Of a stretch of DNA of 64,000 bases, positions 1-28,449 are shown piece after piece. The notes below the pieces were generated by a model, which saw only the letters and a program-made list of their open reading frames with translations, was not told the DNA's origin and made no database searches. The DNA lies in assembly GCA_035299465.1 (NCBI GenBank), contig DATGWN010000047.1, positions 716-64,715 of the forward strand. Direction: 5' to 3'. Every line of letters starts with the position of its first letter. Within the stretch, counting starts at the first letter, position 1. The DNA comes from Acidobacteriota bacterium. GTDB lineage: Archaea > Nanobdellota > Nanobdellia > Woesearchaeales > DATGWN01. A program made the translations under genes and the position numbers.

Positions 1-1167
1 ATCTGGAACAATGTCTTTATGCAGTACGACAAACAAGCCGATGGCACACTTGCGCCACTCAAGCAAAAATGCGTCGATACGGGGATGGGAGTCGAGAGAA
101 CAGCCCTTGCACTCCAAGGTAAAGAAAACGTGTATGAAACGGAAGCGTTTGAATCCGTGTTCAAAGTAATTGCAGCAAACGTAAATGAAAACATCGCAGT
201 AATAAGAACAAAACCTAATTTTCGAATTGTTGCAGACCACATCAGAACAGCAACATTCATGCTTGGCGATGAGAGAACAATATCCCCCTCAAATACAGAC
301 AGAGGATACATTCTACGACGACTCATTAGACGCACTATCAGAAATTTGCGCACAACAAATCTTACTTGTGCAGAACTAGCTGAAAAAATAATTGATGATT
401 ACGGCGAACAATATCCGACACTCAAACAAAAACACGCAACAATCATTGATGAACTAAAAAAAGAAGAAGAGAAATTTAAGAAAACGCTCGACAAAGGAGA
501 AAATCGTGTAATGACTCTCACAGCAAACCAAAATGCACAAAAAATAATCTCAGGTAAAGATGCATTTGATCTTTTCCAAAGTTACGGTTTCCCATTAGAA
601 ATGACAGTGGAAGCTGCAAAAGAGCGCGGATTCACAGTCGACTCATCAGAGTTCAAAAAACTCTTTGAAGAACACCAAGCAAAATCACGCACAGGAGCAG
701 AACAAAAATTCAAAGGCGGACTTGCAGACAACAGCGACCGAACTGTGCGACTGCATACTGCAACGCACTTACTCAATGAAGCTCTGCGCAAAGTCATCAG
801 CAAAGACATTGTCCAAAAGGGTTCAAATATCACGGCAGAGCGACTGCGATTCGACTTCAATCTTGACAGAAAATTGACGCCAGAGGAAGTCAAAGCCGTC
901 GAAGCGGAAGTCAACCGCGTTATACAGTTAGATCTTCCGATAACTATTGTTGAAATGTCGCCAGAAGAAGCGAAAGCAAAAGGCGCTCAGTCAGAATTTG
1001 GCGCGCGATATCCTCCAAAAGTCACCGTCTACAAAGTCGGCGATTACTCTATGGAAATCTGCATGGGTCCACACGTGAAGCACACTAAGGAAGTCGGCAC
1101 TTTCACTATTCAAAAAGAAGAATCATCTGCAGCAGGTATCAGACGCATCAAAGCGACGGTGGACTGA
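1..1167 (+). CDS. alaS: alanyl-tRNA synthetase, C-terminal part (5' end truncated by window edge)
   Basis: Frame is open from nt 1. 'WNNVFMQY...DTGMGVER' is the end of the AlaRS catalytic core, followed by an editing domain with HxxxH ('HTATHLL') and 'CMGPHV' zinc motifs. Confidence 0.85.
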   Translation: MWNNVFMQYDKQADGTLAPLKQKCVDTGMGVERTALALQGKENVYETEAFESVFKVIAANVNENIAVIRTKPNFRIVADHIRTATFMLGDERTISPSNTDRGYILRRLIRRTIRNLRTTNLTCAELAEKIIDDYGEQYPTLKQKHATIIDELKKEEEKFKKTLDKGENRVMTLTANQNAQKIISGKDAFDLFQSYGFPLEMTVEAAKERGFTVDSSEFKKLFEEHQAKSRTGAEQKFKGGLADNSDRTVRLHTATHLLNEALRKVISKDIVQKGSNITAERLRFDFNLDRKLTPEEVKAVEAEVNRVIQLDLPITIVEMSPEEAKAKGAQSEFGARYPPKVTVYKVGDYSMEICMGPHVKHTKEVGTFTIQKEESSAAGIRRIKATVD

Positions 1168-1805
1168 TGAAACTCACGTGGTACGGCCACAGTACATTTC
1201 TGATTGAAGATGGCCAAAAGATCATCATAGATCCTTGGCAGTTGGGCGATGACGTTCCAAAAGCTGACATAGTGCTTATAACACATCCGCACCCAGATCA
1301 TTTCTCGCTTCCTGACATCCAAAAAGTCAGAGGACAGGGCGCGCAGATTTATGCACATCCAGGCTGCAAAGGTATTGATGGCGATGTCGAGCACATCCTC
1401 CCTGGCCAAAAAATTATGGTCGGTGAAGTCGTCTTTGACGTATTGCCTGCGTATAACACAAATAAATTCCGCTCTCCTGGTGTCCACTTTCATCCTCAAG
1501 ATTCACAGTTTTGTGGTTTTTTGGTACAGACGCCTCACGCCCGATGGTATGTCGCTGGCGATACTGATAAGATCCCTGAAATGGATACTTTGAAAAATAT
1601 TGATGTCGCGCTTCTTCCTGTATCTGGAACGTATGTTATGACTGCGGCAGAAGCAGTTGACGCCTCGCACACTGTGAAAGCAAAACACGCAGTTCCTGCA
1701 CATTATGGCAGCATTGTTGGCACAAAAGAAGATGGAGAATTTTTTGTAAATAATTGTTTTGGGAAAGGAGTCTTACTCAAAAAAGGCGAGCCTTACCAAT
1801 TTTAG
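1167..1805 (+). CDS. MBL-fold metallo-hydrolase
   Basis: 'THPHPDH' HxHxDH beta-lactamase-fold motif. Start overlaps the alaS stop (ATGA). Confidence 0.8.
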   Translation: MKLTWYGHSTFLIEDGQKIIIDPWQLGDDVPKADIVLITHPHPDHFSLPDIQKVRGQGAQIYAHPGCKGIDGDVEHILPGQKIMVGEVVFDVLPAYNTNKFRSPGVHFHPQDSQFCGFLVQTPHARWYVAGDTDKIPEMDTLKNIDVALLPVSGTYVMTAAEAVDASHTVKAKHAVPAHYGSIVGTKEDGEFFVNNCFGKGVLLKKGEPYQF

Positions 1806-2074
1806 GAGAATTTGCCCCAATCTCTTTTTATGTTCCAATTATATGGAGGTTTCCAATCTATAAACGTCGGTTCAAATCGTTTCTCGGTTTCGCGCACGTC
1901 AATGACACATTCAGGTAATATGGCAGTGTAGTGCGGGCCACTAGGACTGTCAAAATCAAAGAATTGGAACCGTTCTTTTCCATCAGCATATTGCTTTGTT
2001 TTCATAATTCCAAAATCGAGCGGCGCACAGTGTCGAGAAACTATTCCCTTCTTAGAGGCATATGTCACCAACAA
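1802..2074 (-). CDS. small hypothetical protein
   Basis: Only ORF filling the 1805-2163 gap. Protein-like composition, no recognised motif. Confidence 0.3.
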   Translation of the reverse strand: MLVTYASKKGIVSRHCAPLDFGIMKTKQYADGKERFQFFDFDSPSGPHYTAILPECVIDVRETEKRFEPTFIDWKPPYNWNIKRDWGKFS

Positions 2075-2162
2075 TATATTTTTGCCGCGTATTGCTCGTT
2101 CGACATTATTTTTGTCCGTCTGCCGTAGTTGGCAAGGACATTATTAAATATACTGAAATAAC

Positions 2163-3059
2163 TTGGTTCTCGACGTTATATTTTATAAACCGTTGCCGTA
2201 TCCATCGGTCATGCATTTACCTAAATTCCCATATTTGGAAAAAGCGGCAAAAGGCATTCTCAGATATGCACCGCATTGGCGAAACGCACCTACATATACT
2301 GAACGTGTGCGCCACATGGCACATCTACAGGAGCTTCGCGAATATATCTCATCCGATGTGCCACTGACTTTCGCTGAATTCGGCCCAGGCGGGATTGTTC
2401 AAAAAGTCCTTGATTCTCCACAGATTCAAAAGTTGCCTAAGCGAGCACAAAGACTAGCTGAAGCCACTGCTCGCCACTTCACTATGCGAGATTTTACGGT
2501 GTTCGAATCTGATGAAATACGACATCTTTTCGCAAAACAAATCGAATATATGTATATCATCGATAGATCCACACGCGTGCTTGACGCACTTCGCGCAAAA
2601 CAATACGACAGAACAGTCTTGCTCGACGTCGATTTGGAGCGTCAGATTCTCACAGACATGCCTTTGGTCGATGTCGCAATTTCATATAACGTAATCGCCC
2701 GAAACGATGAACAGGCGAAAGTTCTCTGCAATATAGCTCACAGCGTCAATAAGGGCGGCGTCTTGTCTATTGAAGACGATTCGTTGCAGCTGCCGCTCAA
2801 TAATTATGGCTACGACAAAATCGGCAGATGGTTGTATGTCAGAAACGAAATCGTTGGTCCGACGCATACTTCGGTTACCGGCAAACTGGACAAAGCCGTG
2901 CGCTTCAAACCGGCAGTAGGCCTGAACCACATAGATGCAGCTGCAAAGGCGGCGTTGCATGCTTCGGCAAAAGATGGACCGGTTCGAGTGGATATAGAGC
3001 ACTTAAATGACGAATCTCGGTTAGCTTTAGAAAAAATAGAAAGAAAAAGAAAAAATTAA
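2163..3059 (+). CDS. hypothetical protein (weak class I methyltransferase-like 'EFGPGG' motif)
   Basis: 298-aa ORF. Start codon uncertain. Ends convergently, overlapping the next gene. Confidence 0.5.
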   Translation: MVLDVIFYKPLPYPSVMHLPKFPYLEKAAKGILRYAPHWRNAPTYTERVRHMAHLQELREYISSDVPLTFAEFGPGGIVQKVLDSPQIQKLPKRAQRLAEATARHFTMRDFTVFESDEIRHLFAKQIEYMYIIDRSTRVLDALRAKQYDRTVLLDVDLERQILTDMPLVDVAISYNVIARNDEQAKVLCNIAHSVNKGGVLSIEDDSLQLPLNNYGYDKIGRWLYVRNEIVGPTHTSVTGKLDKAVRFKPAVGLNHIDAAAKAALHASAKDGPVRVDIEHLNDESRLALEKIERKRKN

Positions 3060-3247
3060 ATCATTTCTCCGATATCAGTTTCTTCTTCTGTTATCAAAGA
3101 AAGATCGTTTTGTGACGTTGTTGTCTGCGGTGTTTCAAGCGGTGCCGTCTTTGGAGGATTCTGAGAATCTTCCTGAGGTGCCGATGCACACGCAGTGAGC
3201 AACAAGACGCTGATCAACAGCAAGGCAATGATAGCTTTAGTTCTCAT
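3056..3247 (-). CDS. small secreted lipoprotein-like protein
   Basis: Signal peptide with lipobox-like 'LLTAC'. Start overlaps the stop of the upstream gene by 1 nt. Confidence 0.45.
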   Translation of the reverse strand: MRTKAIIALLLISVLLLTACASAPQEDSQNPPKTAPLETPQTTTSQNDLSLITEEETDIGEMI

Positions 3248-4557
3248 TAGTTCACCTGTACTGAGATAACGTCATCATCGTCCGAATCGTCTTCTTCATC
3301 GTCATCGGAACCCGAGTTATCGTCGTCATCATCAGAGTCGTCGTCCGAGCCAGAATTGTCATCTGAGTCGTCGTCTGAACCGGAGTTGTCATCTGAGTCA
3401 TCATCTGTTTCATCTAAGTCGTCATCCTGGTCGTCTACTTTGAGTTTTTCTTCATATCGTAGTCGGCCGTCTTTATATTCTTGCTTGATTTCGACAAAGC
3501 TGCCGTTACCGAGTTGCAACTTGAATCGCTCTCGCATTCGGTCGTCTCTTTGCTCAGATCTCCATTCCATGAGGTCCTGCTTATTTTCAGCGCGGACTTC
3601 GATTCGGCCTGGAGCCATGTATGATCGAAGGCGTGAGAACGCTCTTGGATAGTCTTGTAAGACATCCGCTAATTCAGATTGTGTCTGAACTACTGCCTTG
3701 GAAAACACTGTTGCGTTGATTCGGCCATCGACATAGTCATCAAGTAGACCAGACCAGTTCTGTCGCAAGTCAAGCAATGCTAACGATAGATTCGTGTCGT
3801 TCGTCTGATTTATCATCATACCGAGAACTTCGATTCTATGCGTCAAGATGTTTGCTCGAATCTGTGCAGTTACGTTAACACGGTCTGCTTTCAAGCCTTC
3901 AATTTCAGCTTTGATTTGAGTTCTGATTGCAGCGATGTCATCGTTTGAGACTTCATCTGCGCGAATCTTTTTCTTGATGCTATCGAACTTTCGTTCAAGG
4001 CCCGGGAAAGCTGTGACGTTTTCGTCATCAGACAAGTTGAGTGCATCTTTTTGGTGCTTTTCTACGAAACTGTCGAATCTGTCTTCGTTTGCTCGGATTC
4101 GCAATTCATGTGCTTTCTTGATTTGCATGGCATGCGTTTCGTTGAATTCTTTTTCTACTTTCAATTTAAGCTTGGCTTTGAATTCTGCGGAGAACAGATC
4201 TTTTGCTGCATCTCGGAATTCCTTGACCAAATCTTTTGCTTGATCTCGCGCTTCTTTGACTTCATCAAGTGTCAAATTAGTTGTGACATTTGCTCGAAGG
4301 TCGATAAGCGAGTCAAGTATAGTTTGTAATTGTGTTACGTTGGAATTGTTCACGGACCCATTTGCGGACACGTTTGCAATCACGTTGGCTCCAATCTGGA
4401 TTGCTTTATCCATATGGAGACCCAGTTGTGTTGACTGCGCTACTGCTGCTGATTCTTCGGTTGCGAAAACGCCTACCAAACTGACCAGCGCCAGCATTGC
4501 AATCAATATCCATTTGATTGTCTTCATTGTTGTACCTCTGTGCGCCATTGGCTGCAC
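3247..4557 (-). CDS. secreted coiled-coil protein with D/S-rich acidic repeat C-terminus
   Basis: N-terminal signal peptide, long heptad-like region, C-terminal 'DDDSDDNSGS' repeats encoded by 30-bp DNA tandem repeats. Confidence 0.7.
   Translation of the reverse strand: MQPMAHRGTTMKTIKWILIAMLALVSLVGVFATEESAAVAQSTQLGLHMDKAIQIGANVIANVSANGSVNNSNVTQLQTILDSLIDLRANVTTNLTLDEVKEARDQAKDLVKEFRDAAKDLFSAEFKAKLKLKVEKEFNETHAMQIKKAHELRIRANEDRFDSFVEKHQKDALNLSDDENVTAFPGLERKFDSIKKKIRADEVSNDDIAAIRTQIKAEIEGLKADRVNVTAQIRANILTHRIEVLGMMINQTNDTNLSLALLDLRQNWSGLLDDYVDGRINATVFSKAVVQTQSELADVLQDYPRAFSRLRSYMAPGRIEVRAENKQDLMEWRSEQRDDRMRERFKLQLGNGSFVEIKQEYKDGRLRYEEKLKVDDQDDDLDETDDDSDDNSGSDDDSDDNSGSDDDSDDDDDNSGSDDDEEDDSDDDDVISVQVN
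3296..3410. repeat. about 3.5 copies of a 30-bp in-frame tandem repeat (units at 3338-3367 and 3368-3397 nearly identical)
   Basis: 'tcgtcgtc(c/t)ga(g/a)cc(a/g)ga(a/g)ttgtcatctgag' repeated head-to-tail. Encodes the acidic tail of the 3247-4557 protein. Confidence 0.8.
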
Positions 4558-4692
4558 TTCATACCTGTATTATGGTTGGAACACCTTATAAACCCTTTGC
4601 GGAACAAGTTGGAACTTGTCGACGAGAAATAATGGAACGGGTGTTTTTCACCTGTTTTTTGAGAAAATTTGAGAATACCCTGAAATGAACTA

Positions 4693-5451
4693 CTATTTGT
4701 GCCACTGCTGGTGAAACGCTAACGTGTTCGTATAGCCGCCTGTGATCTTGATCAATATCTGTTTTTCAACCAATAAATCTACATTTCGAGATAAAGATGC
4801 TTTTGGAATCTGCGTTTGATGGAAGAGGGCGTTTTGCGTAGCCTTGCCGCCATGCGCTTTGAGAGCGTCAAGAATCTGTTTTTGCGTGTCGTTGAGCGTA
4901 TCATATATGGCTTGGTATGAATCTTTGAGCTGCATCGACTTCTTTTGCCTCTTATTTAGAATTACTAATGCTACACCCAAGGCGATAAGGATGAATCCAG
5001 TTAAGAAATAGACAGACAAATCTGACTGTGGAACTGCGTCATTAATACTATATTGAATTGAGATGTTAACAGGTTCTTGCGATCCGATGAACGTAAGTGT
5101 GATGACGCTATCTGCTTCAATGAGCGTCTGAGAAGGAGATTTCACATAATTGACAACAGCGCCCGCAGGCAATTGCACTTTGATGAGTGAGACTGAGACA
5201 TCTTGAGCGCTTGCGTAGCTAAATGTCCAGTATTTTGAGGACTTCTTGGTCAACTCTGTACTTTGCAGATGCAAATCGCTTCCCTGCGGTATTGGACCGA
5301 TATCAACGTTGGCGTCACCAGTAATTATCGCCACGCCTGCGCCATTGAGACTGATTTGCTGGTCAACGTATGATTGTGAGAAGACTCCTACGCTACTGAG
5401 CACACACATTGCCAAAATGATACATATGCTTCGAATATACGCGTTCATCAT
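4693..5451 (-). CDS. membrane-anchored protein: signal peptide + extracytoplasmic domain + TM helix + C-terminal winged-helix (MarR/ArsR-like)
   Basis: Signal peptide 'ICIILAMCVLSSVGVFS'. TM helix 'FLTGFILIALGVALVIL' followed by KRQKK. C-terminal 'QKQILDALKAHGGKATQNALFHQTQIPKASLSRNVDLLVEKQIL' wHTH. Confidence 0.65.
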   Translation of the reverse strand: MMNAYIRSICIILAMCVLSSVGVFSQSYVDQQISLNGAGVAIITGDANVDIGPIPQGSDLHLQSTELTKKSSKYWTFSYASAQDVSVSLIKVQLPAGAVVNYVKSPSQTLIEADSVITLTFIGSQEPVNISIQYSINDAVPQSDLSVYFLTGFILIALGVALVILNKRQKKSMQLKDSYQAIYDTLNDTQKQILDALKAHGGKATQNALFHQTQIPKASLSRNVDLLVEKQILIKITGGYTNTLAFHQQWHK

Positions 5452-5513
5452 AAAGAATCAGAAATATTGACTTAAAAAGATGCCGTTTGCACCATGTTGT
5501 TTTTGATGCAACA

Positions 5514-5732
5514 CTATTCTTCTTTGTCGAAAAAACTTTTCAAGGGCGTTGTCTTTGTCATTTCTTTGACGCCAAAACCTTCTTTTTTGAATTTCTTGCT
5601 CATGTCTTGTAGCGCGTTCATGGGAAGTGACTTTATAAAAAAAATTGTTGTTGAATGATGGGGTTGCAATAGTGCGGATAGAATGTGAGTCATAGGATGT
5701 ATGTGTTTGAGTATATGAATCACATCAAACAT
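5514..5732 (-). CDS. small hypothetical protein (possibly shorter, from internal 'MNALQD')
   Basis: ORF only. Weak. Confidence 0.2.
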   Translation of the reverse strand: MFDVIHILKHIHPMTHILSALLQPHHSTTIFFIKSLPMNALQDMSKKFKKEGFGVKEMTKTTPLKSFFDKEE

Positions 5733-5751
5733 GAATAGTCTCTGAGAAATA

Positions 5752-6147
5752 TTATCTTTTTGCGCTGAAACGAGAACTGATGTACTCGAGATCTTGAATT
5801 GATATTTCTCTGCATTTCTTCTTGAACATTCGCATTACAGTGTCAGACATATGAGAAACAATGGATAATTTTTCGACGACGTCCTTGAGTGTGAGTGGTA
5901 CCTTTGGTGCTTGCGTGCGCTTGAGGGTTTTTTCATCCTTCATTTCGTAAATTCCTATAATTTTATGCGAGATAGGCAAATATACAACAAAGAAATCGCC
6001 AGGAGTTGCTGCTAATCCGTCTCCTGCCACATAATCAACTGGCAATTCGGATACATCTGCGTCCTGCCCCAGGTCTTGTGTAACTCTGAACAAAAATGCT
6101 CTCATCTGTGCAAGCCAATTCTGGCAGTTTATATCTTTTTCCAGCAA
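5752..6147 (-). CDS. hypothetical protein
   Basis: 131-aa ORF with balanced composition, no motif recognised. Confidence 0.45.
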   Translation of the reverse strand: MLEKDINCQNWLAQMRAFLFRVTQDLGQDADVSELPVDYVAGDGLAATPGDFFVVYLPISHKIIGIYEMKDEKTLKRTQAPKVPLTLKDVVEKLSIVSHMSDTVMRMFKKKCREISIQDLEYISSRFSAKR

Positions 6148-6176
6148 TTACGCGTTCTTGAATCACTTGAATCTGA

Positions 6177-8309
6177 TTAGCGCGCAGTCATGAATGATTT
6201 TTGCATCGTTTGATTAGACATATTGGATAAAATCGACACTAACTGATTATAGACTGCGTCGCTGTCGAGTGCTTTTACATGAAGATCCGTATTGAGAGCA
6301 TCAGTGCACGTACCGTTGAAAATCGTGTAGAGTCTTGCGCCTTGTAATTTACTTGAGTCCTCGGTTACTACACCGTCTCCGAACGTGCCATCCATTACGC
6401 ATCCGGTATGTGCAATGACATACCATTCTCCGGTGACGGGAGGCAATTTACGCAAGAACGCACTTCCTGCAGAAAGATCGTCACATTCTTTTACCGCACC
6501 AAATAGTGGACAATAGGACTGCACTGTGCCGTTTACTCCGCCAAACGGTGAATTAAGCGTAATGAATGCCTTTACATCTTCGTCTCCGAACAGCGATTCA
6601 TATGAACGAGCAACCAATCCGCCCATGGAATGCGCTACTACGATTACTTGCGGTGCGCCACTTTGTTGTTTGATGTCTTTGATGATTTCTCTTAAGCGCA
6701 ATGCGTAATTCTCTATTCGTTCCGACTTTTGAATCGTTACGTCATATGAACCAAGATTGTACACAGTCTGGTAATAGAAACTTGCTCGCACGGTAAAAGG
6801 AATTTGGACAGGCACGCCACTAGCCGAATATTCGCCCGCATTCACATATCCTTCGTCTTCTAGCTTTTGCTGGATGTGAGCGAAGGCCTGCATAGAGACC
6901 AATGGGTCATTATCTTCGGTGAATGCGTGACCATGTATGAATACTATTGGAGGTTTTTGGTGTTGGCATTTGCCACAAGTGTCTTTTACGCAACAATTAG
7001 CGCTAGCATCCAGCAAATTCACAGGCGCGGACGGTTCGAATGGAGGAAAGGTGACTGTCATCACTTGCGCAATCGATGGCATGTTAATGTTGACAGTCTG
7101 CTTTACATCGCAGTAACTTGGGACTTGTGCAAGAAATGTCACAGACATATCTGGTTCGCTCAAAAGGGAAACTTGCGATTCATTGAGTATTGTGACATTT
7201 GTCAGATTCGCGCTCACGACGTACAGATTATGATCTTTTATTTTTTGAATCCGGTCACAGATTGTTTGGATTGTTTGGTTGGTTGAAGGCGGAGTTATTG
7301 TCAACGAAGTATTTACGAGTGAGATGTATGACTCAAGTTGATCCAGACGCTGCATTGTTGCGGCTTTTTTCTCAAGATATAATAGCGTTTTATTTGTAAG
7401 ATACGACGTTGCCCCTGTATAGATGACTTGCGTACGGGGAGGATCAGCGTCTGTGGTCATGGATAACACGTCAGACAATTTGCCGATAGCTAATGATACT
7501 TGCGCTGCATCCGTATCATGCGTTTGCGCGTATGTGATGAATTCAACGACCGATGTATTTGACAAAAATGTAATCGCATCCAGCTGCATATGTGCCAACT
7601 GATCTCTGCTGGCATTCGTGAACAACAACAAGGGCGCAAGCAACATGTTTGGTTCAAATGTGCGTATCAATGACTCGGAGAGATTATATTGCTGAGTATT
7701 CCAATACGCTGCCGCTGTCATGATTTGTGCGCGCGTGAATGTCGGAGCGGGTATTTCCGTTATCGGCCAAATATCCTTGAGTGTAAGGTAGTACTCGTAT
7801 TCGTCAAGATTGTCTTTAGCTTGTGTGAGTGCAGTCTGCAGTTCGTCTTTTCGTTCCAGAATTTTCTTATCTGTTTCATTAAGAGAGTATTCTAGGACAA
7901 TGAGTGTTGTTCGTTCGCGCGGAACACCGGTCGCAGGACAGAGCGATGACGGAAGCACGGCGCAACTAGTTCGAAAGTGAGTCATATATTGACCGAAACC
8001 GAACTCAGGTGCGGTGATATTGAACGTGTGCGATTCTTGCGGATTCGTTGAAGAGTAATTATAGACATCGTCGACCGAATAGTTACACACGGCGGAGCAA
8101 GTAGCGTATGTAAAAAAACGAGTGTCAATCGTAATCGGTACCGTTTGATTTGCGAGCACTTTTGCAACGAAAGGAGTAGGACTAACTTTGACTAGCACTT
8201 CGTCGTCGAGCGTGAAATGCACTTGTGCGAAAAGCAAGATGAGCAAAATGCCAATAAGTGCCGCTGCACTCATGATTGCGATTAGCCAAAAAAGGGTCTT
8301 GCGTTTCAT
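6177..8309 (-). CDS. secreted/membrane-anchored alpha/beta-hydrolase (lipase/esterase-like) with large N-x-S/T-rich N-terminal domain
   Basis: N-terminal TM/signal 'LFWLIAIMSAAALIGILLILLFA'. C-terminal 'VVAHSMGG' GxSxG nucleophile elbow and 'FIHGH' oxyanion region (PGAP1/DUF676-like lipase fold). More than 20 N-glycosylation sequons. Confidence 0.7.
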   Translation of the reverse strand: MKRKTLFWLIAIMSAAALIGILLILLFAQVHFTLDDEVLVKVSPTPFVAKVLANQTVPITIDTRFFTYATCSAVCNYSVDDVYNYSSTNPQESHTFNITAPEFGFGQYMTHFRTSCAVLPSSLCPATGVPRERTTLIVLEYSLNETDKKILERKDELQTALTQAKDNLDEYEYYLTLKDIWPITEIPAPTFTRAQIMTAAAYWNTQQYNLSESLIRTFEPNMLLAPLLLFTNASRDQLAHMQLDAITFLSNTSVVEFITYAQTHDTDAAQVSLAIGKLSDVLSMTTDADPPRTQVIYTGATSYLTNKTLLYLEKKAATMQRLDQLESYISLVNTSLTITPPSTNQTIQTICDRIQKIKDHNLYVVSANLTNVTILNESQVSLLSEPDMSVTFLAQVPSYCDVKQTVNINMPSIAQVMTVTFPPFEPSAPVNLLDASANCCVKDTCGKCQHQKPPIVFIHGHAFTEDNDPLVSMQAFAHIQQKLEDEGYVNAGEYSASGVPVQIPFTVRASFYYQTVYNLGSYDVTIQKSERIENYALRLREIIKDIKQQSGAPQVIVVAHSMGGLVARSYESLFGDEDVKAFITLNSPFGGVNGTVQSYCPLFGAVKECDDLSAGSAFLRKLPPVTGEWYVIAHTGCVMDGTFGDGVVTEDSSKLQGARLYTIFNGTCTDALNTDLHVKALDSDAVYNQLVSILSNMSNQTMQKSFMTAR

Positions 8310-8358
8310 ACAGTGTGATACTATTATCTTTCATTTATATAACTGTAGAATGTGAACA

Positions 8359-9720
8359 TTACATGTCAATATAATTCTTGACTGGAGTATTTTTTTGAGC
8401 CATTCCTCGGAACTGTAGAGATGCCTTCTTGCACAGATCATGATAATTAGAATATAGCCACATGTTGACGTCCAAATTCTGCTCGTGGCCAAATGAGAGC
8501 TGCTTTGAGAGCTGGGTGAGTGTAGTTAGTCGACTTTCATCCGTTTGCGATTGGAATTTTGCCTTGAACTGGGCGGTGCGTGCGTATGTGCGGATACCTT
8601 CGTGCTTTGATACTTGCGCAAGCAGACGAGGATAGAATGGTCCAGACATACTTGGTCCAACAATATATTCCAAAACAGGGGACGCATGCTCAAGAATGTA
8701 TGAAGTACGCATTTTGTCGTTTTTAACGCGGGAGAAATATGATTGCACTTGCTCAAGCATCGCGTACGTGCTTGTATGTTCCATAGAGCGCAGCCGGGAT
8801 TTTCGGTGCTCAAGTACGGTTTCACTAGGGACGTAGATGCCAGCACTTACGAGTTGATTGAGCGCATCTGGCGCGTCAGCACAGATAATCTTCAAAAGAG
8901 GAATTGTGAAATCAGGTGCTGGCCCGAAAGTGACTGCGACGTTTTCTTTGGTGTGAGGATTATAGATGAACTTCCAATCTGCCCCGTTAATCTTAAGTGC
9001 GATTTCATTTACATGCACGTCAATCTCGTTGGACATATCAATTGTGAGATATCGTGATAATGCACCTAATCGTGAACGCAGCGCAAGTGCGTCTGTTGTC
9101 ATTTGAGATACGTTTTGAGTCGTCAACAGATACTCTTTTGGTTCAATAGCCATTCTCTCAAATTCTCGTTTGAGGTTTCGAACTCCTGTGACTGTTTTTT
9201 TTGGCGTATCAAGTGTAATCGATAGTTTGTATGGACCTGCTGTGAATTCCGATGGTTTGTCAACAATATTTTCCAACAATAGGCCATTTCGCGCTTTTTT
9301 TATTTTACCGACGATAGCTTTTCGCACGCCAAACGTTGAAATAATCGCGTCCGCTTTGCGATACAACTCTTTTACAAACGGCAGTAAATATTGATCTTCA
9401 CTGTTTGCGAAGTCTGCGTTGATTTGCTGTTGAGATAGTATTAGGACATCGCCATTAAATGGGTTTTGCGCTGAGCTGCCAATGATTCCGACTCGTGGTG
9501 GAACTATATCTGGTTTTTGTAAGGATTCCAAGCCTTTTCGCATGTGTTCAATTTCATCGCCTTGGACTTCGTACGATAATTTCGGTTTGAGGTACAAAAC
9601 GGATTGTTCGACTGCGCCAGCACTTTTAAGAAACTCCTCATCCAGACTACTAATTACAGGACGATCACGAGATATTTCTTTGAGTGCGGCAAGCTCCATT
9701 AATCGGCGGAACTGAGTCAT
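8359..9720 (-). CDS. hypothetical protein (last gene of AAA/vWA operon)
   Basis: 453 aa. Start overlaps the upstream stop (ATGA). No recognised domain. Confidence 0.7.
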   Translation of the reverse strand: MTQFRRLMELAALKEISRDRPVISSLDEEFLKSAGAVEQSVLYLKPKLSYEVQGDEIEHMRKGLESLQKPDIVPPRVGIIGSSAQNPFNGDVLILSQQQINADFANSEDQYLLPFVKELYRKADAIISTFGVRKAIVGKIKKARNGLLLENIVDKPSEFTAGPYKLSITLDTPKKTVTGVRNLKREFERMAIEPKEYLLTTQNVSQMTTDALALRSRLGALSRYLTIDMSNEIDVHVNEIALKINGADWKFIYNPHTKENVAVTFGPAPDFTIPLLKIICADAPDALNQLVSAGIYVPSETVLEHRKSRLRSMEHTSTYAMLEQVQSYFSRVKNDKMRTSYILEHASPVLEYIVGPSMSGPFYPRLLAQVSKHEGIRTYARTAQFKAKFQSQTDESRLTTLTQLSKQLSFGHEQNLDVNMWLYSNYHDLCKKASLQFRGMAQKNTPVKNYIDM

Positions 9721-19328: not shown

Positions 19329-19460
19329 TTTTTTCCTCGCTTACCCATGTAAGGCGTTTTTGCCTTCCGTTTAGGATACCTGTGGAGTGTGTAGTAGGTA
19401 TTTGAGTATTTGTCCCGTTTCTTTCTGTTTTTTCGCTGTTTTATGTTACGTTTTCGCTAG

Positions 19461-19470
19461 TTTTATAAGA
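19461..19470 (+). promoter_or_regulatory. archaeal TATA box ('TTTTATAAGA') about 26 nt upstream of the Lrp start (near-leaderless)
   Basis: AT-rich TATA-like element at the canonical distance upstream of ATG 19492. Confidence 0.4.
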
Positions 19471-19491
19471 AAAGCATTATACCTTACAGAC

Positions 19492-20487
19492 ATGACGGAG
19501 AAAGAAAACTCAATCAAACTCGACAAACGCGACAAGAGACTCATTCATATCTTGGGCGAGAATTCACGTATGCCGTTGACTGAGATTGGAAAACATCTTC
19601 GCTTGCATCCTGATACTGCACGATACAAATTGCAACGACTCTTTGAACTAGGAGTTGTATGCAAAAACACTGCAGAGCTTGACTTTATCAGACTTGGATA
19701 CAGCATTTACCAAGTTTTCATGTTAGTCGATACTGACACGGAAGAAGAATACACTAATTTCATCACGATGCTTTCACAGCATCCAAACACAAAAGAAGTG
19801 CGAACGTATCACGATAGATGGGACGTCGAATGGGTTGTCGTTGCGCGAAACTTACAGGAATTCGACGAGTTCTTCTGGGAATTCACGGCAAAATCTAAGG
19901 CACGAATTTTACACAAGAACCATCTGAGTGTTGTCGAATATCTTCGAACGACGAACGTGGCTCACAGTCTTTTCCCGAATGAAACGGTCAAAATTGAACA
20001 GCAAAAATCGTCGCAATCATTGTCACTAGATTCGACTGATCGAGCATTGCTGCAAGTTCTTGCAAAAGATGCACGGACTGCGGCGACAAGCATTGCGGCT
20101 GAGATTGGAGTTAGTGTCGATAGCGTCATACGACGAATCAAGAAATTGTACTCAGACGGCGTTATCACAAAATTCTCCATCGTCCTTGACCGAGCAAAAA
20201 TCGGGCATGATTGGTATGTATTTGCAGTTAGATGCAACTCATTAGCCAAGAATATACAGAGTTCCTTACGCGAATTCGTACGAACACACCCTCACATATT
20301 CCGCTGCGTAAAAGTACATGGCTCATGGGACTTCCTGTTCTATATTTCAACTGATTCACGCGAAGAATTCCACAAGACTATTCGCGAAATCAAGACTATT
20401 TTGAGTGCTCATCTGACTGATTATGACACATGGATTATCTACGATGAAATCCAGCAGCAGCATATTCCAAAAACTATTACGGATTAG
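19492..20487 (+). CDS. Lrp/AsnC-family transcription regulator with two tandem HTH+RAM modules
   Basis: 'KRDKRLIHILGENSRMPLTEIGKHL' and 'STDRALLQVLAKDARTAATSIAAEIGVS' AsnC-type HTHs. Start placed at 'MTEKEN', downstream of the 19387 ORF start (19387 kept as the alternative). Confidence 0.75.
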   Translation: MTEKENSIKLDKRDKRLIHILGENSRMPLTEIGKHLRLHPDTARYKLQRLFELGVVCKNTAELDFIRLGYSIYQVFMLVDTDTEEEYTNFITMLSQHPNTKEVRTYHDRWDVEWVVVARNLQEFDEFFWEFTAKSKARILHKNHLSVVEYLRTTNVAHSLFPNETVKIEQQKSSQSLSLDSTDRALLQVLAKDARTAATSIAAEIGVSVDSVIRRIKKLYSDGVITKFSIVLDRAKIGHDWYVFAVRCNSLAKNIQSSLREFVRTHPHIFRCVKVHGSWDFLFYISTDSREEFHKTIREIKTILSAHLTDYDTWIIYDEIQQQHIPKTITD

Positions 20488-24424: not shown

Positions 24425-25996
24425 TCATAGTACTCCTGAGAAGAGCAGGTTTAGTACCCATCTCAGAACAATAAAGAGAGTCATCGATATCGCCCAGAAA
24501 ATAGGCATATCACGCACAGAACCAAACGCTTTTCCAGTTCTGATTGCGGAAATGATAATAGTCGACATTGTCGTCGTCAAGAACAACATCACTAAGCAGA
24601 AAATAAAGAAGTCGGATTGGCTGACTGCGTCAGTGGACAATGACAGCGAAATTCCCGCCGCGTTGCCACCGCTTCCAGCACTTTGCGCGGCATTCATCTT
24701 CGCGCCGACTTCTTGGACAATCGTGAGTAATTGTGTTGCAACGGCAAACAGACCTGGCGCAGCTACGACTACTGCGAATACAATGAAGATAACGTAGGAT
24801 GTGACGTTTGCAGACATACTTTGCTTACGCAAGTCGATATCTTCCAGGTTTAGTGCAATGTTTTCTAATAAGTCGCCGATTTCACTACCTGCATCCATGC
24901 CTTCAACAATGAGACCAACCGAGCGGCGAATAATCTTCGAATCGTACTTTCTGCCAAAGTCTTGCAATGCAGAGGAAAGATCTTGACCGACCATCGCTTT
25001 TTTTGCGATGATCTCGATCTCCTTAGATAGTATGCCAAATTGCGGACGTGCACCACGCCATAATGCTTGGTCAATAGTCATCCCAGCTCTAATATTTGCC
25101 GCAACAACGTGCAAGAATTCAGGGAAGTGCTTTTCGACGGCATCTTTTCTCTGCGCAATGCGTAAGTCAAGGAATGCGAATGTCAATAAGGATAACACGA
25201 ATGTGCCGACTGGATAGACGAGCGCTGCAAAGAACATAAGTACACTGATATAATAGAAGATGCCACCAAGGCCTTCATATTTCGTATAAATGAAATAAAG
25301 ATAGATCAGTGAACAGATGACAATCGAAAATTTGTTTATCTTTGCAAACATTTCTCGATATGAAAGCGAAAAACCTGCAGTCTCTATGTATGCGTTTAGT
25401 TTGCGCTTGAATTCTGCATCAGCGCTTTTCTTATGAACGGCAGGTTTGTGGTCTTTGGACGTTACGATGTTCTTAAAATTAGTGAGAAACTCGACAATCG
25501 TATTCTGCTTTTTTGCTTCTTTCGGTGGCGACGGCACTTGCGGCTTTGGTTGCTCTTTTCTTTCGAACACTTTTGCTATTGTGTTTGATAGCGATGTAGA
25601 AATATTCTGAGTTGTCTGAGAAATTCTTTGAGATATCTTTTGCGATAATGAGATGTGTGGCGATATTTGGGAAACTGGCTGCGACTGTTCGTTTTGCACG
25701 CTTGCTTGCACTTTTTGTTCTTTCGCGTCAGCTTTTTGCTTTTCCTTTTCTACAATGAGTCTTTTTGCAGACTCAAGTTTGTCTTCGATGTCTTGTGATT
25801 TTGTTTCTTTTACTGGGGCAGACTTTTCAAGTATAGCTTTTTTTGCAGATTCAATCTTTGCAAATGACTGATCCAATTCCTTTTTTTTCTCTGTCTGCGA
25901 TTTGAGAATCTTTTGCTTTGCTGCGTCGATCTTAGCAGCCATAGACTGGTTCACTTCCTGTTGCAATGCCGTTTTCGCAGTCTGTTTTTTTGCCAT
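24425..25996 (-). CDS. T2SSF-domain pilus platform protein (TadC/FlaJ half) with ~200-aa K/Q/S-rich N-terminal extension
   Basis: C-terminal T2SSF domain ('ALWRGARPQFGILSKEIEIIAKKA...') with TM helices. N-terminus low-complexity and coiled-coil-like. Confidence 0.75.
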   Translation of the reverse strand: MAKKQTAKTALQQEVNQSMAAKIDAAKQKILKSQTEKKKELDQSFAKIESAKKAILEKSAPVKETKSQDIEDKLESAKRLIVEKEKQKADAKEQKVQASVQNEQSQPVSQISPHISLSQKISQRISQTTQNISTSLSNTIAKVFERKEQPKPQVPSPPKEAKKQNTIVEFLTNFKNIVTSKDHKPAVHKKSADAEFKRKLNAYIETAGFSLSYREMFAKINKFSIVICSLIYLYFIYTKYEGLGGIFYYISVLMFFAALVYPVGTFVLSLLTFAFLDLRIAQRKDAVEKHFPEFLHVVAANIRAGMTIDQALWRGARPQFGILSKEIEIIAKKAMVGQDLSSALQDFGRKYDSKIIRRSVGLIVEGMDAGSEIGDLLENIALNLEDIDLRKQSMSANVTSYVIFIVFAVVVAAPGLFAVATQLLTIVQEVGAKMNAAQSAGSGGNAAGISLSLSTDAVSQSDFFIFCLVMLFLTTTMSTIIISAIRTGKAFGSVRDMPIFWAISMTLFIVLRWVLNLLFSGVL

Positions 25997-26811
25997 TACA
26001 TGTCAACCGCCGGTCGTGCACCTTTGATGATGGAGAAGAACATGTATTGAAACGACGTGACCACAAGAGCGATACCCAACAGCGCGGAAAGAGATAGTTT
26101 CAAGTCGGCAAATGAGATGAGTACAACAACCATGACCATGCCTAGCGATGGGAAAATGACTGCAATCATCAAATAGAACATCGCAATTGGGTTTAGCTTC
26201 TTACCATATCGCTCGACTTCGATCAATTGCTTTTTGTTGATCTGATCAAGTACTGTCGTCAGTGAGATTGAAATATCCGCGCCAGTCTGGATAGAATTTA
26301 CAATTTGCCACATGACTTTCTGAAAATTCTCGGATGGATTGAGAACGATTGCTTTTGTGATTGCTTCTTCTACGCTGGTACCGACGTCGACATCGTCCAC
26401 TATTTTCTTGAAATACTTTCCAATGCCGTCGTAGTCACGAGCGATGTTCTTGAGCGCATCATAAATCGGAACGCCCGATTTAATCTCAACAATGAGGAAT
26501 TTTCCGACAAAGAGAATGTCCTTGTCGATGTCCTTTCTCTTTCGCATGACGACGACGTCAGGCATCTTGAGCATATTAAGAAATGACAGGCAAAAGAAAA
26601 GCGGTAAGATAATGATCAATGGCCAGAATGGTTTTTTGAAGACGGACAGAATCATCGCACAAGAGAGCGTTATCGCTAGCGCCATAGCCACTGCTTGACT
26701 GAGGATTTTTCTAATATAGATTGCAGGTTCATACTGCATTTCTGCCTGCTGCAACGTGACGTATAGATTCGGAAATTTCCTTGCAACGTAGTGGAAAAAC
26801 GGGTGTACCAT
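25996..26811 (-). CDS. T2SSF-domain pilus platform protein (TadB/FlaJ half)
   Basis: T2SSF domain 'GVPIYDALKNIARDYDGIGKYF...' with 3-4 TM helices. Start overlaps the neighbouring gene. Confidence 0.75.
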   Translation of the reverse strand: MVHPFFHYVARKFPNLYVTLQQAEMQYEPAIYIRKILSQAVAMALAITLSCAMILSVFKKPFWPLIIILPLFFCLSFLNMLKMPDVVVMRKRKDIDKDILFVGKFLIVEIKSGVPIYDALKNIARDYDGIGKYFKKIVDDVDVGTSVEEAITKAIVLNPSENFQKVMWQIVNSIQTGADISISLTTVLDQINKKQLIEVERYGKKLNPIAMFYLMIAVIFPSLGMVMVVVLISFADLKLSLSALLGIALVVTSFQYMFFSIIKGARPAVDM

Positions 26812-26814
26812 AGT

Positions 26815-28449
26815 TTAGCCTATTTTCTTGAGCAGTTCGCTTGGATTGTCGTAGTATTCTGCCATGACATGGCTGACGCCATCGATTGTATTGATGTTAT
26901 TCTTGACAAGATACGCAAGTACGCGCTCTTTTTCTTTGAGTTGCGCTTTGATCTGTGCGGCAGTCATGCCTGAGAACGTCTGTAATGTTTTTAGAAGTAC
27001 AATTGGCTCGGCCACTTTTTTGAGCTTGTCGACTGAAGGATCGTATCTGAAGAGTACGTGCGCTTCGCCGTCTTCGAGGATTTCCGCGATTTCAAATGTT
27101 CGTCGAAGTCCAGTTCGTCTGTTACGGTATTGGATGACGGCCAAGGAAAGCGCAGGGATCATTGTCTTTGGAATGTTGATTGGCGGATTCGTCAGACGTG
27201 TGACTGTTTCTGCCGCAGTGTTTGCGTGAATAGTCGCGTAGACTGAGTGACCTGTGTGAATGGCTTCGAAAAGAACTTCTGCTTCGGCAGGTCTTCTGAT
27301 TTCACCGACGAGGATTCTATCCGGACGCATACGTAGCGAGTTTTGCAAGAGCATGAGCATCGTTACGCCGCCACGACCTTCTGCGTTAGGCAATCGAGTG
27401 AGCATCGGAATCCAGTGCAAGAATTTTGGCAACTTGATTTCTCTGGTATCTTCGATTGAGATGATGCGCTGACTTGGCGGGAAGAAATTTGACATGATGT
27501 TTAGCATACTTGTCTTACCTGACGCAGTACCACCAGCGATAAGCATCGATAATTCGTATTGGATTGCGTGCCAAATGAGTGCTGCTGCCTCGAAACTGAG
27601 CGTGTTATGTTTGAGAAAATCAGCAATTGTCCAAGGCTGTGCCGAGAACTTACGGATAGTGATCGTATTACCTTCGTTTGAAATCGGCATGAGTGTTGCG
27701 TTGACACGGTCACCGACGTTGATGGAGACGTCTAGCAATGGTTCGAGGATACTGATCTGTCGACCAACTTTACGTCCGATGGTGGTCGCAAAATAGCGGA
27801 TCTGCTCTTCAGTTTCCAATTTGATGTTGGTTTTCAGCAAGCCGTGTCGTCGGTGATAGACCCAAATCGGCATGTGCGAACCGTTGATTGCGATTTCTTC
27901 TAAGCCTTGGTCACTCATGAGGACTTCGACTTCTCCTAAGCCAATACTTCGCAAGAGAACGTAGGATACGAAGAATTTTATGTGCTCAGCTTCTGCTGTC
28001 GGAAAGTATTTTTTGACGAGGACTTCGATCGTGTCTTTGAAGACGCCATGTACGTCTTCTTGTTTTTTTGTCATATCCTTGAGCTCGATATTTCCCAAGT
28101 TGACTGTTTTTACTAATTGCTGACGGATATTTTCCAAGATGAGAAGCGTGTGTTCACCAATGCTTGGGACTGAAACGTCATAAAGTGGGACATATTCGCC
28201 TTTTTGTCTGAAGATCTTGATTTGCAGCGGGATGTCACGACAGAGTACTTCGTATGAATCAATCATATCGATACTTTTCTGTCCTTTTGCGTCGCCTAGT
28301 GATGATGAGAAGTCGACGGTCTCCTGCGAAGTCTTTTCCTTCTTATTGAGATTCGTCTTTATCGCACGAGCCTGTTCCTTTTCAGAAACTGACTGGATTG
28401 TTTGAATGGCTTTGGATGGCTGATCTTTACTTTCTCTTTTTTGCCCCAT
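26815..28449 (-). CDS. type IV pilus/archaellum assembly ATPase (FlaI/TadA/VirB11 secretion ATPase family)
   Basis: Walker A 'GGTASGKTS', 'ISIEDTRE' Asp box, 'GEIRRPAEAEVLFEAIHTGHSVYATIHAN' His box. Confidence 0.85.
   Translation of the reverse strand: MGQKRESKDQPSKAIQTIQSVSEKEQARAIKTNLNKKEKTSQETVDFSSSLGDAKGQKSIDMIDSYEVLCRDIPLQIKIFRQKGEYVPLYDVSVPSIGEHTLLILENIRQQLVKTVNLGNIELKDMTKKQEDVHGVFKDTIEVLVKKYFPTAEAEHIKFFVSYVLLRSIGLGEVEVLMSDQGLEEIAINGSHMPIWVYHRRHGLLKTNIKLETEEQIRYFATTIGRKVGRQISILEPLLDVSINVGDRVNATLMPISNEGNTITIRKFSAQPWTIADFLKHNTLSFEAAALIWHAIQYELSMLIAGGTASGKTSMLNIMSNFFPPSQRIISIEDTREIKLPKFLHWIPMLTRLPNAEGRGGVTMLMLLQNSLRMRPDRILVGEIRRPAEAEVLFEAIHTGHSVYATIHANTAAETVTRLTNPPINIPKTMIPALSLAVIQYRNRRTGLRRTFEIAEILEDGEAHVLFRYDPSVDKLKKVAEPIVLLKTLQTFSGMTAAQIKAQLKEKERVLAYLVKNNINTIDGVSHVMAEYYDNPSELLKKIG

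Follow-up and report, generated by a model that had tools for sequence, protein, structure and literature searches.

The region analysed here contains three consecutive genes on the minus strand of a 64-kb window (the whole stretch of DNA under study). Gene 1 (4693-5451) encodes a 252-aa candidate transmembrane regulator with a winged helix-turn-helix (wHTH) domain. Gene 2 (3247-4527) encodes a 426-aa secreted helical protein that is rich in sequons and ends in an acidic D/S tail, and gene 3 (3056-3247) a 63-aa protein with a lipobox (LLTAC) and a C-terminal DIGEMI. Between genes 1 and 2 lies a predicted promoter/operator (4578-4638, minus strand) composed of four direct GTTCC boxes and a TATA box, which was recognized from the sequence, from comparison of related loci, and by a reverse motif scan. 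The initial annotation had placed gene 1 directly upstream of the gene for an acidic secreted protein, and gene 2, with its acidic tail, is indeed the next gene on the same strand.

Gene 1 was delimited by ORF calling in the window, and its extent is consistent with its family and with an AlphaFold2 model of mean pLDDT 93, built from 141 homologues. The NCBI annotation places the start at the second Met, giving a protein of 251 aa (P0001). The NCBI label, also carried by the protein copy, is Acidobacteriota. We rejected such a bacterial origin, as the window encodes an archaeal EF-2 (aEF-2, TIGR00490, 917 bits) and an archaeal EF-1alpha (TIGR00483, 654 bits), both above their cut-offs.

Architecture and topology of the gene 1 protein

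A hydropathy scan revealed two hydrophobic segments in the gene 1 protein, at residues ~6-25 and ~146-165. The first lies in a signal-peptide-like N-terminus (residues 1-25; 5377-5451, minus strand; Kyte-Doolittle peak at 6-24), which would be cleaved at a VFS/QS junction. It is followed by a predicted extracytoplasmic beta-sandwich without a Pfam model (residues 26-144; 5020-5376, minus strand) and by a single transmembrane (TM) helix (residues 145-166; 4954-5019, minus strand), with a hydropathy maximum of 2.71 at residues 147-165. A KRQKK stop-transfer and a cytoplasmic linker helix come next (residues 167-185; 4897-4953, minus strand), as assigned from charge and from the model. The sequence NKRQKK follows the second hydrophobic segment, and five K/R residues are present in the next 16 positions versus none in the preceding 15. 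The C-terminal part (residues 186-246; 4714-4896, minus strand) is a wHTH whose recognition helix starts at PKASLSRN (residues 216-223), according to Pfam, conservation and Foldseek. The architecture proposed in the initial annotation is therefore confirmed, since hydropathy, Pfam and the model point to the same signal-peptide-like segment, TM helix, KRQKK and wHTH; only the ectodomain had been overestimated, and comprises ~120 aa rather than ~150.

The wHTH is of the MarR type and passes the gathering cut-offs of two Pfam models: residues 189-245 match DUF7343 with 29.5 bits (cut-off 27.6), and residues 186-233 match MarR_2 with 29.1 bits (cut-off 27). It does not belong to the Lrs14 or Sta1 families, where it scores far below the cut-offs of the corresponding NCBIfam models (NF040939, 21.5 bits vs 90; NF053606, 19.8 vs 80). 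The AlphaFold2 model comprises a helix at residues 3-18, an all-beta region at 28-136, a continuous helix at 145-185 that includes the TM segment, and the wHTH at 188-246, which is flanked by no helix except this TM/linker helix. Confidence drops to a pLDDT of 71 in a block at residues ~171-180, within the helix that leads from the membrane to the wHTH. Foldseek matched the wHTH to MarR-family and AspA wHTH-DNA complexes, and also to Sso10a.

Gene 1 is a member of a large family with a fixed architecture. An exhaustive profile search retrieved 146 cluster representatives at E<=1e-30, all of this architecture, and the number rose to 423 at E<=1e-10 and to 1296 at E<=0.001. Nearly all of the best 150 matches are 216-300 aa long and align over almost their full length, and 134 of these 150 have two hydrophobic segments at matching positions, the second one followed by K/R residues. 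A word-indexed homologue search with the whole protein returned only gene 1 itself and one relative, 30% identical and of the same layout. Among the 141 aligned family members, DUF7343 is matched by all, MarR_2 by 137 and MarR by 111; the 25 most-matched Pfam families all leave the N-terminal domain uncovered. In the wHTH, P216, K217, S219, S221, R222 and N223, as well as Q206 and G239, are conserved at 92-100% in the 141 members. The family is distributed in Woese-, Nano-, Aenigmat- and Altiarchaeota. In databases, its proteins go by the names 'uncharacterized membrane protein' (IMG) and 'winged helix-turn-helix' or 'MarR family transcriptional regulator' (NCBI), and these named proteins come from Altiarchaeota and Woesearchaeota.

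To orient the protein in the membrane and to assess cleavage of its signal peptide, we relied on classical simple rules, i.e. charge, sequons and AxA sites. K and R residues are more numerous after the TM helix than before it in 141 out of 141 family members, in line with the positive-inside rule, with means of 5.4 over the 15 aa that follow the helix and 1.38 over the 15 aa that precede it. Across the same members, the ectodomain has an average net charge of -4.9 and the C-terminal part one of +10.4, and N-X-S/T sequons are enriched threefold in the ectodomain (1.54 per 100 aa, vs 0.52 inside). Directly before a conserved YYAD strand, the family displays AxA-like residues (VLA/QE, AFA/QD, ASA/ES) that resemble a signal peptidase I site. 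In view of this conserved AxA before YYAD, we rejected a class III signal peptide for gene 1. Positive-inside bias, sequon enrichment and the AxA site all agree with the topology originally suggested, with a sensor outside, one TM helix and a DNA binder inside. By these rules, a beta domain outside the cell and a cytoplasmic wHTH are supported with the first segment either cleaved or uncleaved.

The ectodomain sequence profile gave no significant match against the PDB. An ectodomain-only profile search found the domain solely fused to this wHTH, in proteins of the same architecture, and thus provides no evidence for a mobile sensor module; a putative role as a ligand sensor receives no independent support from that search. 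The ectodomain is best described as a family-specific extracytoplasmic domain, whose resemblance to other beta-sandwiches is one of fold and does not demonstrate homology.

A GTTCC/TATA element between genes 1 and 2

The initial annotation had pointed to GGAAC repeats in this region. They are real: GGAAC starts at positions 4578, 4601, 4611 and 4634 of the plus strand, i.e. four GTTCC boxes on the minus strand (4634-4638, 4611-4615, 4601-4605 and 4578-4582, in gene direction), arranged around a TATA box between genes 1 and 2. The boxes are spaced by 23, 10 and 23 bp. Three of them lie upstream of the TATA box (TTTATAA, 4586-4592), and the fourth begins 3 nt downstream of it. In gene direction, the element reads GTTCC-N18-GTTCC-N5-GTTCC-gcaaaggg-TTTATAA-ggt-GTTCC, and is followed ~40 nt later by AGAGGT and the ATG of gene 2. 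Nowhere else in the 64-kb window are there more than two same-strand copies of GGAAC within 80 nt. The 38-nt composite of three boxes, which lies 78 nt past the stop of gene 1, has a single match in the window versus 0.1 expected from shuffles. The upstream region of gene 1 itself contains no GTTCC box, and there is therefore no sign of autoregulation. An Rfam scan of positions 3000-6200 found nothing. A scan for sigma70 promoters and terminators gave nothing above shuffles, although this model is bacterial and not applicable to an archaeal host.

We then compared this element with the corresponding regions of related genomes, which were fetched with a 37-sequence subset of the 141-sequence family alignment and are MAGs of Woesearchaeota, Nanoarchaeota/Nanobdellota and Aenigmatarchaeota. 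Defined as the regular expression [GAT]TTCC-N4-8-[GAT]TTCC-N8-26-GTTCC, the composite is present in 22 of 26 independent loci, at -26 to +80 nt from the stop of the family gene, although the family proteins of these loci are only 22-40% identical to that of the window. The length of the match is exactly 38 nt in all cases but one. The same geometry is found in 27 sites from 23 loci, whose aligned consensus is attgTTCC...TTGTTCCg..Tt.TTCCGG.aAAaaTttATAtgcTGTTCCa. It can be read as two to three boxes at 10-bp intervals in front of a BRE/TATA-like element, with the last box 3-4 nt past the TATA. Most relatives have an upstream box spacing of 10 bp, compared with 23 and 10 bp in the window. The subclade of L001 and L003 has a last spacing of 33 bp rather than 23, which corresponds to one extra helical turn, so that the phase is preserved. 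We also considered the TATA-adjacent box as a palindrome (TTCCGGAA), but this holds in some loci only, and the A-run is better explained as BRE/TATA.

The reverse test consisted of scanning metagenomes with a DNA pattern alone (GTTCC-N6-TTCCGG-N9-WWW-N3-TGTTCC). This gave 105 matching stretches, for which 80 loci were returned, 71 of them with enough upstream sequence to judge. In 43 of these 71, a family ORF (E 1e-12 to 1e-86) lies directly upstream of the motif and on the same strand, and the distance from its end to the motif is -26 to +367 nt; the 43 loci represent 38 different motif sequences. A further 27 loci without a family ORF represent only ~16 distinct sequences, one gut-metagenome sequence being present nine times, and most are chance matches within coding regions of unrelated organisms. 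L057/L088 and L058, where no family ORF is present, nonetheless look genuine. In one further locus, L085, the motif is followed by a gene-2 homologue, and the contig carries a family ORF at another place. Motif and gene thus predict each other. Additional copies of the promoter element occur in front of a small secreted protein in L019 and of an ABC ATPase in L014, and twice in L009, a locus of the 774-kb complete genome OZ246410.1.

The recognition helix, PK[SA]S[LV]SRN, is close to invariant across the family, in parallel with the invariance of the DNA box. Both the operator and its neighbourhood are conserved, and the operator would serve as the binding site of the wHTH. That the GGAAC repeats are the target of the regulator, as had been suggested, is a prediction strongly supported by comparative genomics.

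Genes 2 and 3 and their genomic neighbourhood

Gene 2 carries a signal peptide and likely starts at the ATG at 4527, which follows AGAGGT, rather than at a GTG at 4557. It is matched by an HMM of its family that was built without the window protein (E 2.3e-12), and its sequence profile has no significant match in the PDB. Members of this family, 270-520 aa long, follow gene 1 in 21 of the 25 motif-found loci with enough downstream sequence. The start of gene 3 overlaps the stop of gene 2. Homologues of gene 3, of 60-72 aa, are present in 16 of 23 loci and share a conserved Cys and a C-terminal [VI]EIGE[ML]I. A type IV pilin-like nature of gene 3 was discarded, since its homologues conserve the lipobox Cys and not the K/R-G/A site. 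This idea had arisen because MRTKA/IIALLL fits the class III signal pattern, and because a prepilin peptidase gene follows the module in L001-L004. In these same four loci, the gene 1 homologue adjoins SRP54 and FtsY-like genes, and genes for an M48 peptidase and LemA are found nearby.

Genes 2 and 3 together make up the downstream unit in most loci, but the downstream gene is not constant. The Aenigmatarchaeota loci keep the regulator, its ectodomain and the motif, and have as cargo an unrelated secreted protein of 140-151 aa. In L024 and L028 the ectodomain itself is different and larger, with no match to the ectodomain HMM, and the cargo is a DUF5667 protein, whereas the TM helix, the wHTH (PKSSLSRNID) and the motif are unchanged. 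In these arrangements, the motif stays with the winged helix and not with the cargo.

Relation to known regulators and proposed mode of action

Transmembrane transcription regulators are defined as acting on transcription while in the membrane, with a predicted DNA-binding domain and at least one predicted TM region (PMC10269533), and gene 1 displays both of these features, with its matches to DUF7343 and MarR_2 and its hydropathy maximum of 2.71. Judged from these predicted features, gene 1 is a transmembrane transcription regulator, and would act on transcription from within the membrane, with indirect support from the conserved operator beside it; it is neither a member of the ToxR/CadC family nor a canonical MarR protein.

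The likeness to ToxR and CadC put forward in the initial annotation is one of function only. As in ToxR, CadC and TcpP, a single-span polypeptide would combine an extracytoplasmic domain with a cytoplasmic winged helix, with an envelope-related operon beside its gene as predicted target. The sites of gene 1 are also direct repeats about one helical turn apart, as with OmpR/PhoB-type domains, which bind direct repeats head-to-tail. The likeness does not extend to family membership, because gene 1 has another type of DNA-binding domain and the opposite order of domains. Gene 1 has a MarR/DUF7343 domain instead of an OmpR-type one, and Trans_reg_C matches neither the gene 1 protein nor figures among the 25 most-matched families of the 141 members. 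Its wHTH is C-terminal rather than N-terminal, with the C-terminus placed inside by charge. In ToxR and CadC the DNA binder comes first and the sensor last (type II), whereas in gene 1 the order is signal peptide, sensor, TM helix and DNA binder (type I). Moreover, unlike in ToxR/CadC, the predicted promoter is archaeal (TATA/BRE), so that gene 1 would act on TBP, TFB and RNA polymerase (RNAP) and not on sigma70-RNAP.

Canonical MarR proteins of ~150 aa are soluble; they form symmetric dimers through their N- and C-terminal helices and bind palindromic sites. The C-terminal 60 residues of gene 1 pass both Pfam models, and their fold matches MarR-DNA complexes. However, gene 1 possesses the wHTH core only, hung from a TM helix, with no dimerisation helices in the model, and its predicted sites are direct repeats. 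Such direct-repeat boxes are at odds with the palindrome binding of MarR, and this counts against a role of gene 1 as the reader of the element.

Among archaeal proteins, the closest point of comparison is with ArnR and ArnR1 of Sulfolobus acidocaldarius, which have C-terminal TM helices and no large ectodomain. Like gene 1, they are archaeal, membrane-anchored and HTH-bearing, and they regulate genes for cell-surface structures. They differ in belonging to Thermoproteota, as opposed to the DPANN family of gene 1, and in their N-terminal HTH, and are set apart from it by description. The part of PMC13286277 that deals with ArnR/ArnR1 locates the HTH in the N-terminal region and presents the two as the only archaeal membrane-bound transcription factors studied experimentally (citing Bischof et al., 2019; PMC6396743). 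The earlier statement that regulators of this topology are rarely described in archaea is thus correct as far as experiments are concerned. It does not apply to predictions, as a recent census predicted such transmembrane regulators for 367 out of 404 archaeal species, at ~4 per genome, the main text including no DPANN or MarR-type examples (Demey et al., 2023; PMC10269533). In the literature, we found descriptions of neither the gene 1 family and its ectodomain nor the operator and the three-gene module, and nothing relevant on DUF7343, COG2512 or DUF5667. The class is therefore known in bacteria and counted in archaea, and it is the family, the reversed order and the operator that appear to be undescribed.

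Taken together, these data make it likely that gene 1 encodes a one-component transcription regulator that spans the membrane of a DPANN-type archaeon and controls the adjacent envelope operon. A Sec-type signal peptide would export the beta-sandwich of ~120 aa, and the single TM helix with its K/R-rich stop-transfer would hold the MarR/DUF7343-type wHTH in the cytoplasm. The membrane-tethered winged helices would occupy, in head-to-tail orientation, the four direct GTTCC boxes around the TATA of the transcription unit that follows, and head-to-tail binding on one DNA face would fit an array of parallel tethered molecules. Such binding would control an operon composed of the secreted helical glycoprotein (gene 2) and the small lipobox protein (gene 3). 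Binding to DNA is putative, as are the signal and the direction in which the operon is regulated.

Concerning the direction, a number of archaeal repressors that bind past the TATA box act by blocking RNAP recruitment. Repression is the most likely mode, because the core promoter looks strong, with a consensus-like BRE/TATA, and one box lies between the TATA and the start; recruitment of RNAP would then be blocked, and the block relieved by an extracytoplasmic signal. This assignment is not secure, as boxes directly upstream of the BRE, which some of those described here abut, are typical of archaeal activators. As for the signal, the predicted target operon encodes exported proteins, and feedback by the state of the envelope or by the products of genes 2 and 3 would be the simplest idea and the most economical guess.

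Gene 1 might instead be a membrane-held precursor, from which a signal-triggered cleavage in or near the TM helix would free a soluble wHTH for the GTTCC promoter. Activation by regulated proteolysis is known from CadC processing and from anti-sigma/RIP systems, the operator evidence would fit equally well, and the lower-confidence part (~171-180, pLDDT 71) of the single long helix between membrane and wHTH could be a cleavage or hinge region. The M48 peptidase and LemA genes near the gene 1 homologues of L001-L004 would be in line with this, but the pair is restricted to one subclade, and no protease gene is conserved beside the module. Furthermore, DPANN cells are very small and present no obvious spatial obstacle to tethered binding, and head-to-tail boxes in helical phase suit parallel tethered monomers, all of which makes release by proteolysis rather unlikely. 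We consider it improbable that another protein, a soluble factor, reads the GTTCC boxes, with the wHTH of gene 1 tethering DNA or a partner, or contacting proteins. It is true that the boxes have been linked to gene 1 by sequence comparison, and that the synteny of gene 1 and promoter means that co-occurrence cannot separate binding from adjacency, so that a motif recognized by another factor could be merely syntenic with gene 1, which counts against our main reading; the Foldseek matches to Sso10a and to the centromere-binding AspA would also be compatible with another function. Yet the motif stays with the wHTH even where the downstream gene, or the ectodomain itself, has been replaced, and additional copies occur within family-gene loci (L009, L014, L019). 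The TATA embedded at a fixed distance indicates a promoter and not a centromere, and the near-invariance of the recognition helix parallels that of the box.

The general build of the protein also recalls ribophorin I/OST1, which likewise has a signal peptide, a luminal beta-sandwich, one TM helix and a cytosolic domain. Gene 1 could accordingly be a related accessory subunit for glycosylation or secretion with its cytosolic domain as a docking module, for which the SRP54 and FtsY-like neighbours in L001-L004 might speak. The resemblance between the beta-sandwiches comes with 14-16% identity and no sequence signal, and unrelated beta-sandwiches score almost equally (FMO protein 8.6, ITIH1 8.2, lpg2210 8.1). 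There is no Pfam Ribophorin_I match or other sequence-level link to ribophorin I, and the context holds no glycosylation genes, with no AglB/STT3 beside gene 1. In addition, the cytosolic domain belongs to a bona fide DNA-binding wHTH family, and the conserved operator would be left unexplained. A role of this kind is highly improbable.

If gene 1 is indeed a tethered regulator, as we favour, its sensor-first and DNA-binder-last order, which requires a signal peptide, would widen the design space of one-component membrane regulators. The promoter, whose TATA has boxes on either side, could reveal by what means a factor tethered to the membrane interferes with TBP, TFB and RNAP. Since most DPANN archaea are uncultured, their gene regulation is, to our knowledge, essentially unexplored; here, comparative genomics alone leads to a testable hypothesis that comprises a widespread regulator family, a confident model, an operator predicted to the single base and of fixed geometry relative to the TATA, and a target operon. 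The module also defines two new families of secreted proteins and a new extracytoplasmic domain, and may be relevant to the surface of episymbiotic archaeal cells.

Finally, the three genes might constitute a self-contained circuit for extracellular feedback or signalling in DPANN archaea, with the tail of gene 3 as the ligand of the ectodomain, an idea that we put forward as speculative and doubtful. The invariant (V/I)EIGEM(I) peptide at the C-terminus of gene 3, or its complex with the gene 2 protein, would bind the beta-sandwich, and the regulator would in turn control the promoter of genes 2 and 3. We know of no comparable feedback circuit in archaea. If it exists, it would represent a loop for peptide or lipoprotein autoinduction, for sensing envelope assembly or for sensing cell contact, comparable to CpxP-CpxA feedback or to peptide quorum sensing.

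Variants of the regulator and of its promoter

In two loci, the family of the membrane-bound regulator (gene 1) includes members with another ectodomain (L024, 4476-5312; L028, 4362-5198). This domain is different and larger (~165 aa) and does not match the ectodomain HMM, and the TM segment, the wHTH and the DNA motif are unchanged relative to the family. These regulators are an example of sensor swapping inside the gene 1 family.

The composite promoter, in which GTTCC boxes surround a TATA box, is present in additional copies in three loci that already hold one. Two of these precede an ABC-transporter ATPase (L014, 6689-6726 and 10638-10674), one lies before gene 2 (L009, 6075-6112), and one lies before the gene of a 71-aa secreted protein, itself followed by the regulator gene (L019, 4174-4211). 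Together these copies hint at a small regulon, and the one in L019 also at autoregulation.

The two secreted proteins of the module

The secreted helical protein encoded by gene 2 (window 3247-4527 (-), especially 3286-3435) has numerous N-X-S/T sequons. Its tail is acidic and rich in D/S and is encoded by a 30-nt tandem repeat (window 3329-3399, 2.4 copies); relatives have G/S/N/K-rich tails in place of the D/S-rich one. The family has no Pfam model, with the exception of the L024 and L028 variants, which match DUF5667.

Gene 3 (window 3056-3247 (-)) belongs to a family of 60-72-aa proteins with homologues in loci L001, L003, L006-L009, L011-L013, L016, L017 and L019-L022, whose genes show translational coupling to the gene directly before. 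Members carry a lipobox-like Cys followed by an acidic or T/P-rich linker, and end at the extreme C-terminus in an almost invariant [VI]EIGE[ML]I motif. Because the family has no match in Pfam and no TM segment beyond this motif, the tail is not a known CTERM sorting signal.

Genomic setting and taxonomic labels

In one subclade (L001-L004, positions ~1-9200), an SRP54 gene is directly followed by the module, after which comes a prepilin peptidase (Peptidase_A24); genes for LemA, an M48 peptidase and an FtsY-like protein are close by. The window lacks this setting. The NCBI record P0001, identical to the gene 1 protein, is labelled 'MAG TPA ... Acidobacteriota bacterium'. Its contig nonetheless encodes archaeal EF-2 and EF-1alpha, so that a binning error is likely. 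A number of related loci carry the label 'uncultured Methanosarcinales', although their relatives are DPANN lineages.

Other genes in the window

Outside the conserved module, two genes upstream of gene 1, lies the gene of a 710-aa protein (6177-8309 (-)) that has a hydrophobic N-terminal segment, numerous glycosylation sequons and, at its C-terminal end, an alpha/beta-hydrolase (lipase/PGAP1-like) domain. A cluster at 24425-28449 (-) resembles the genes for assembly of a type IV pilus or an archaellum: it encodes a FlaI-like ATPase (T2SSE; NF058587, 264.7 bits, under the cut-off) and two membrane proteins with a T2SSF domain, and the large ORFs that flank it have no Pfam match. Finally, the HTH of a 366-aa Lrp/AsnC-type regulator (19387-20487 (+)) begins only at residue 214, which leaves an N-terminal extension of ~210 aa.
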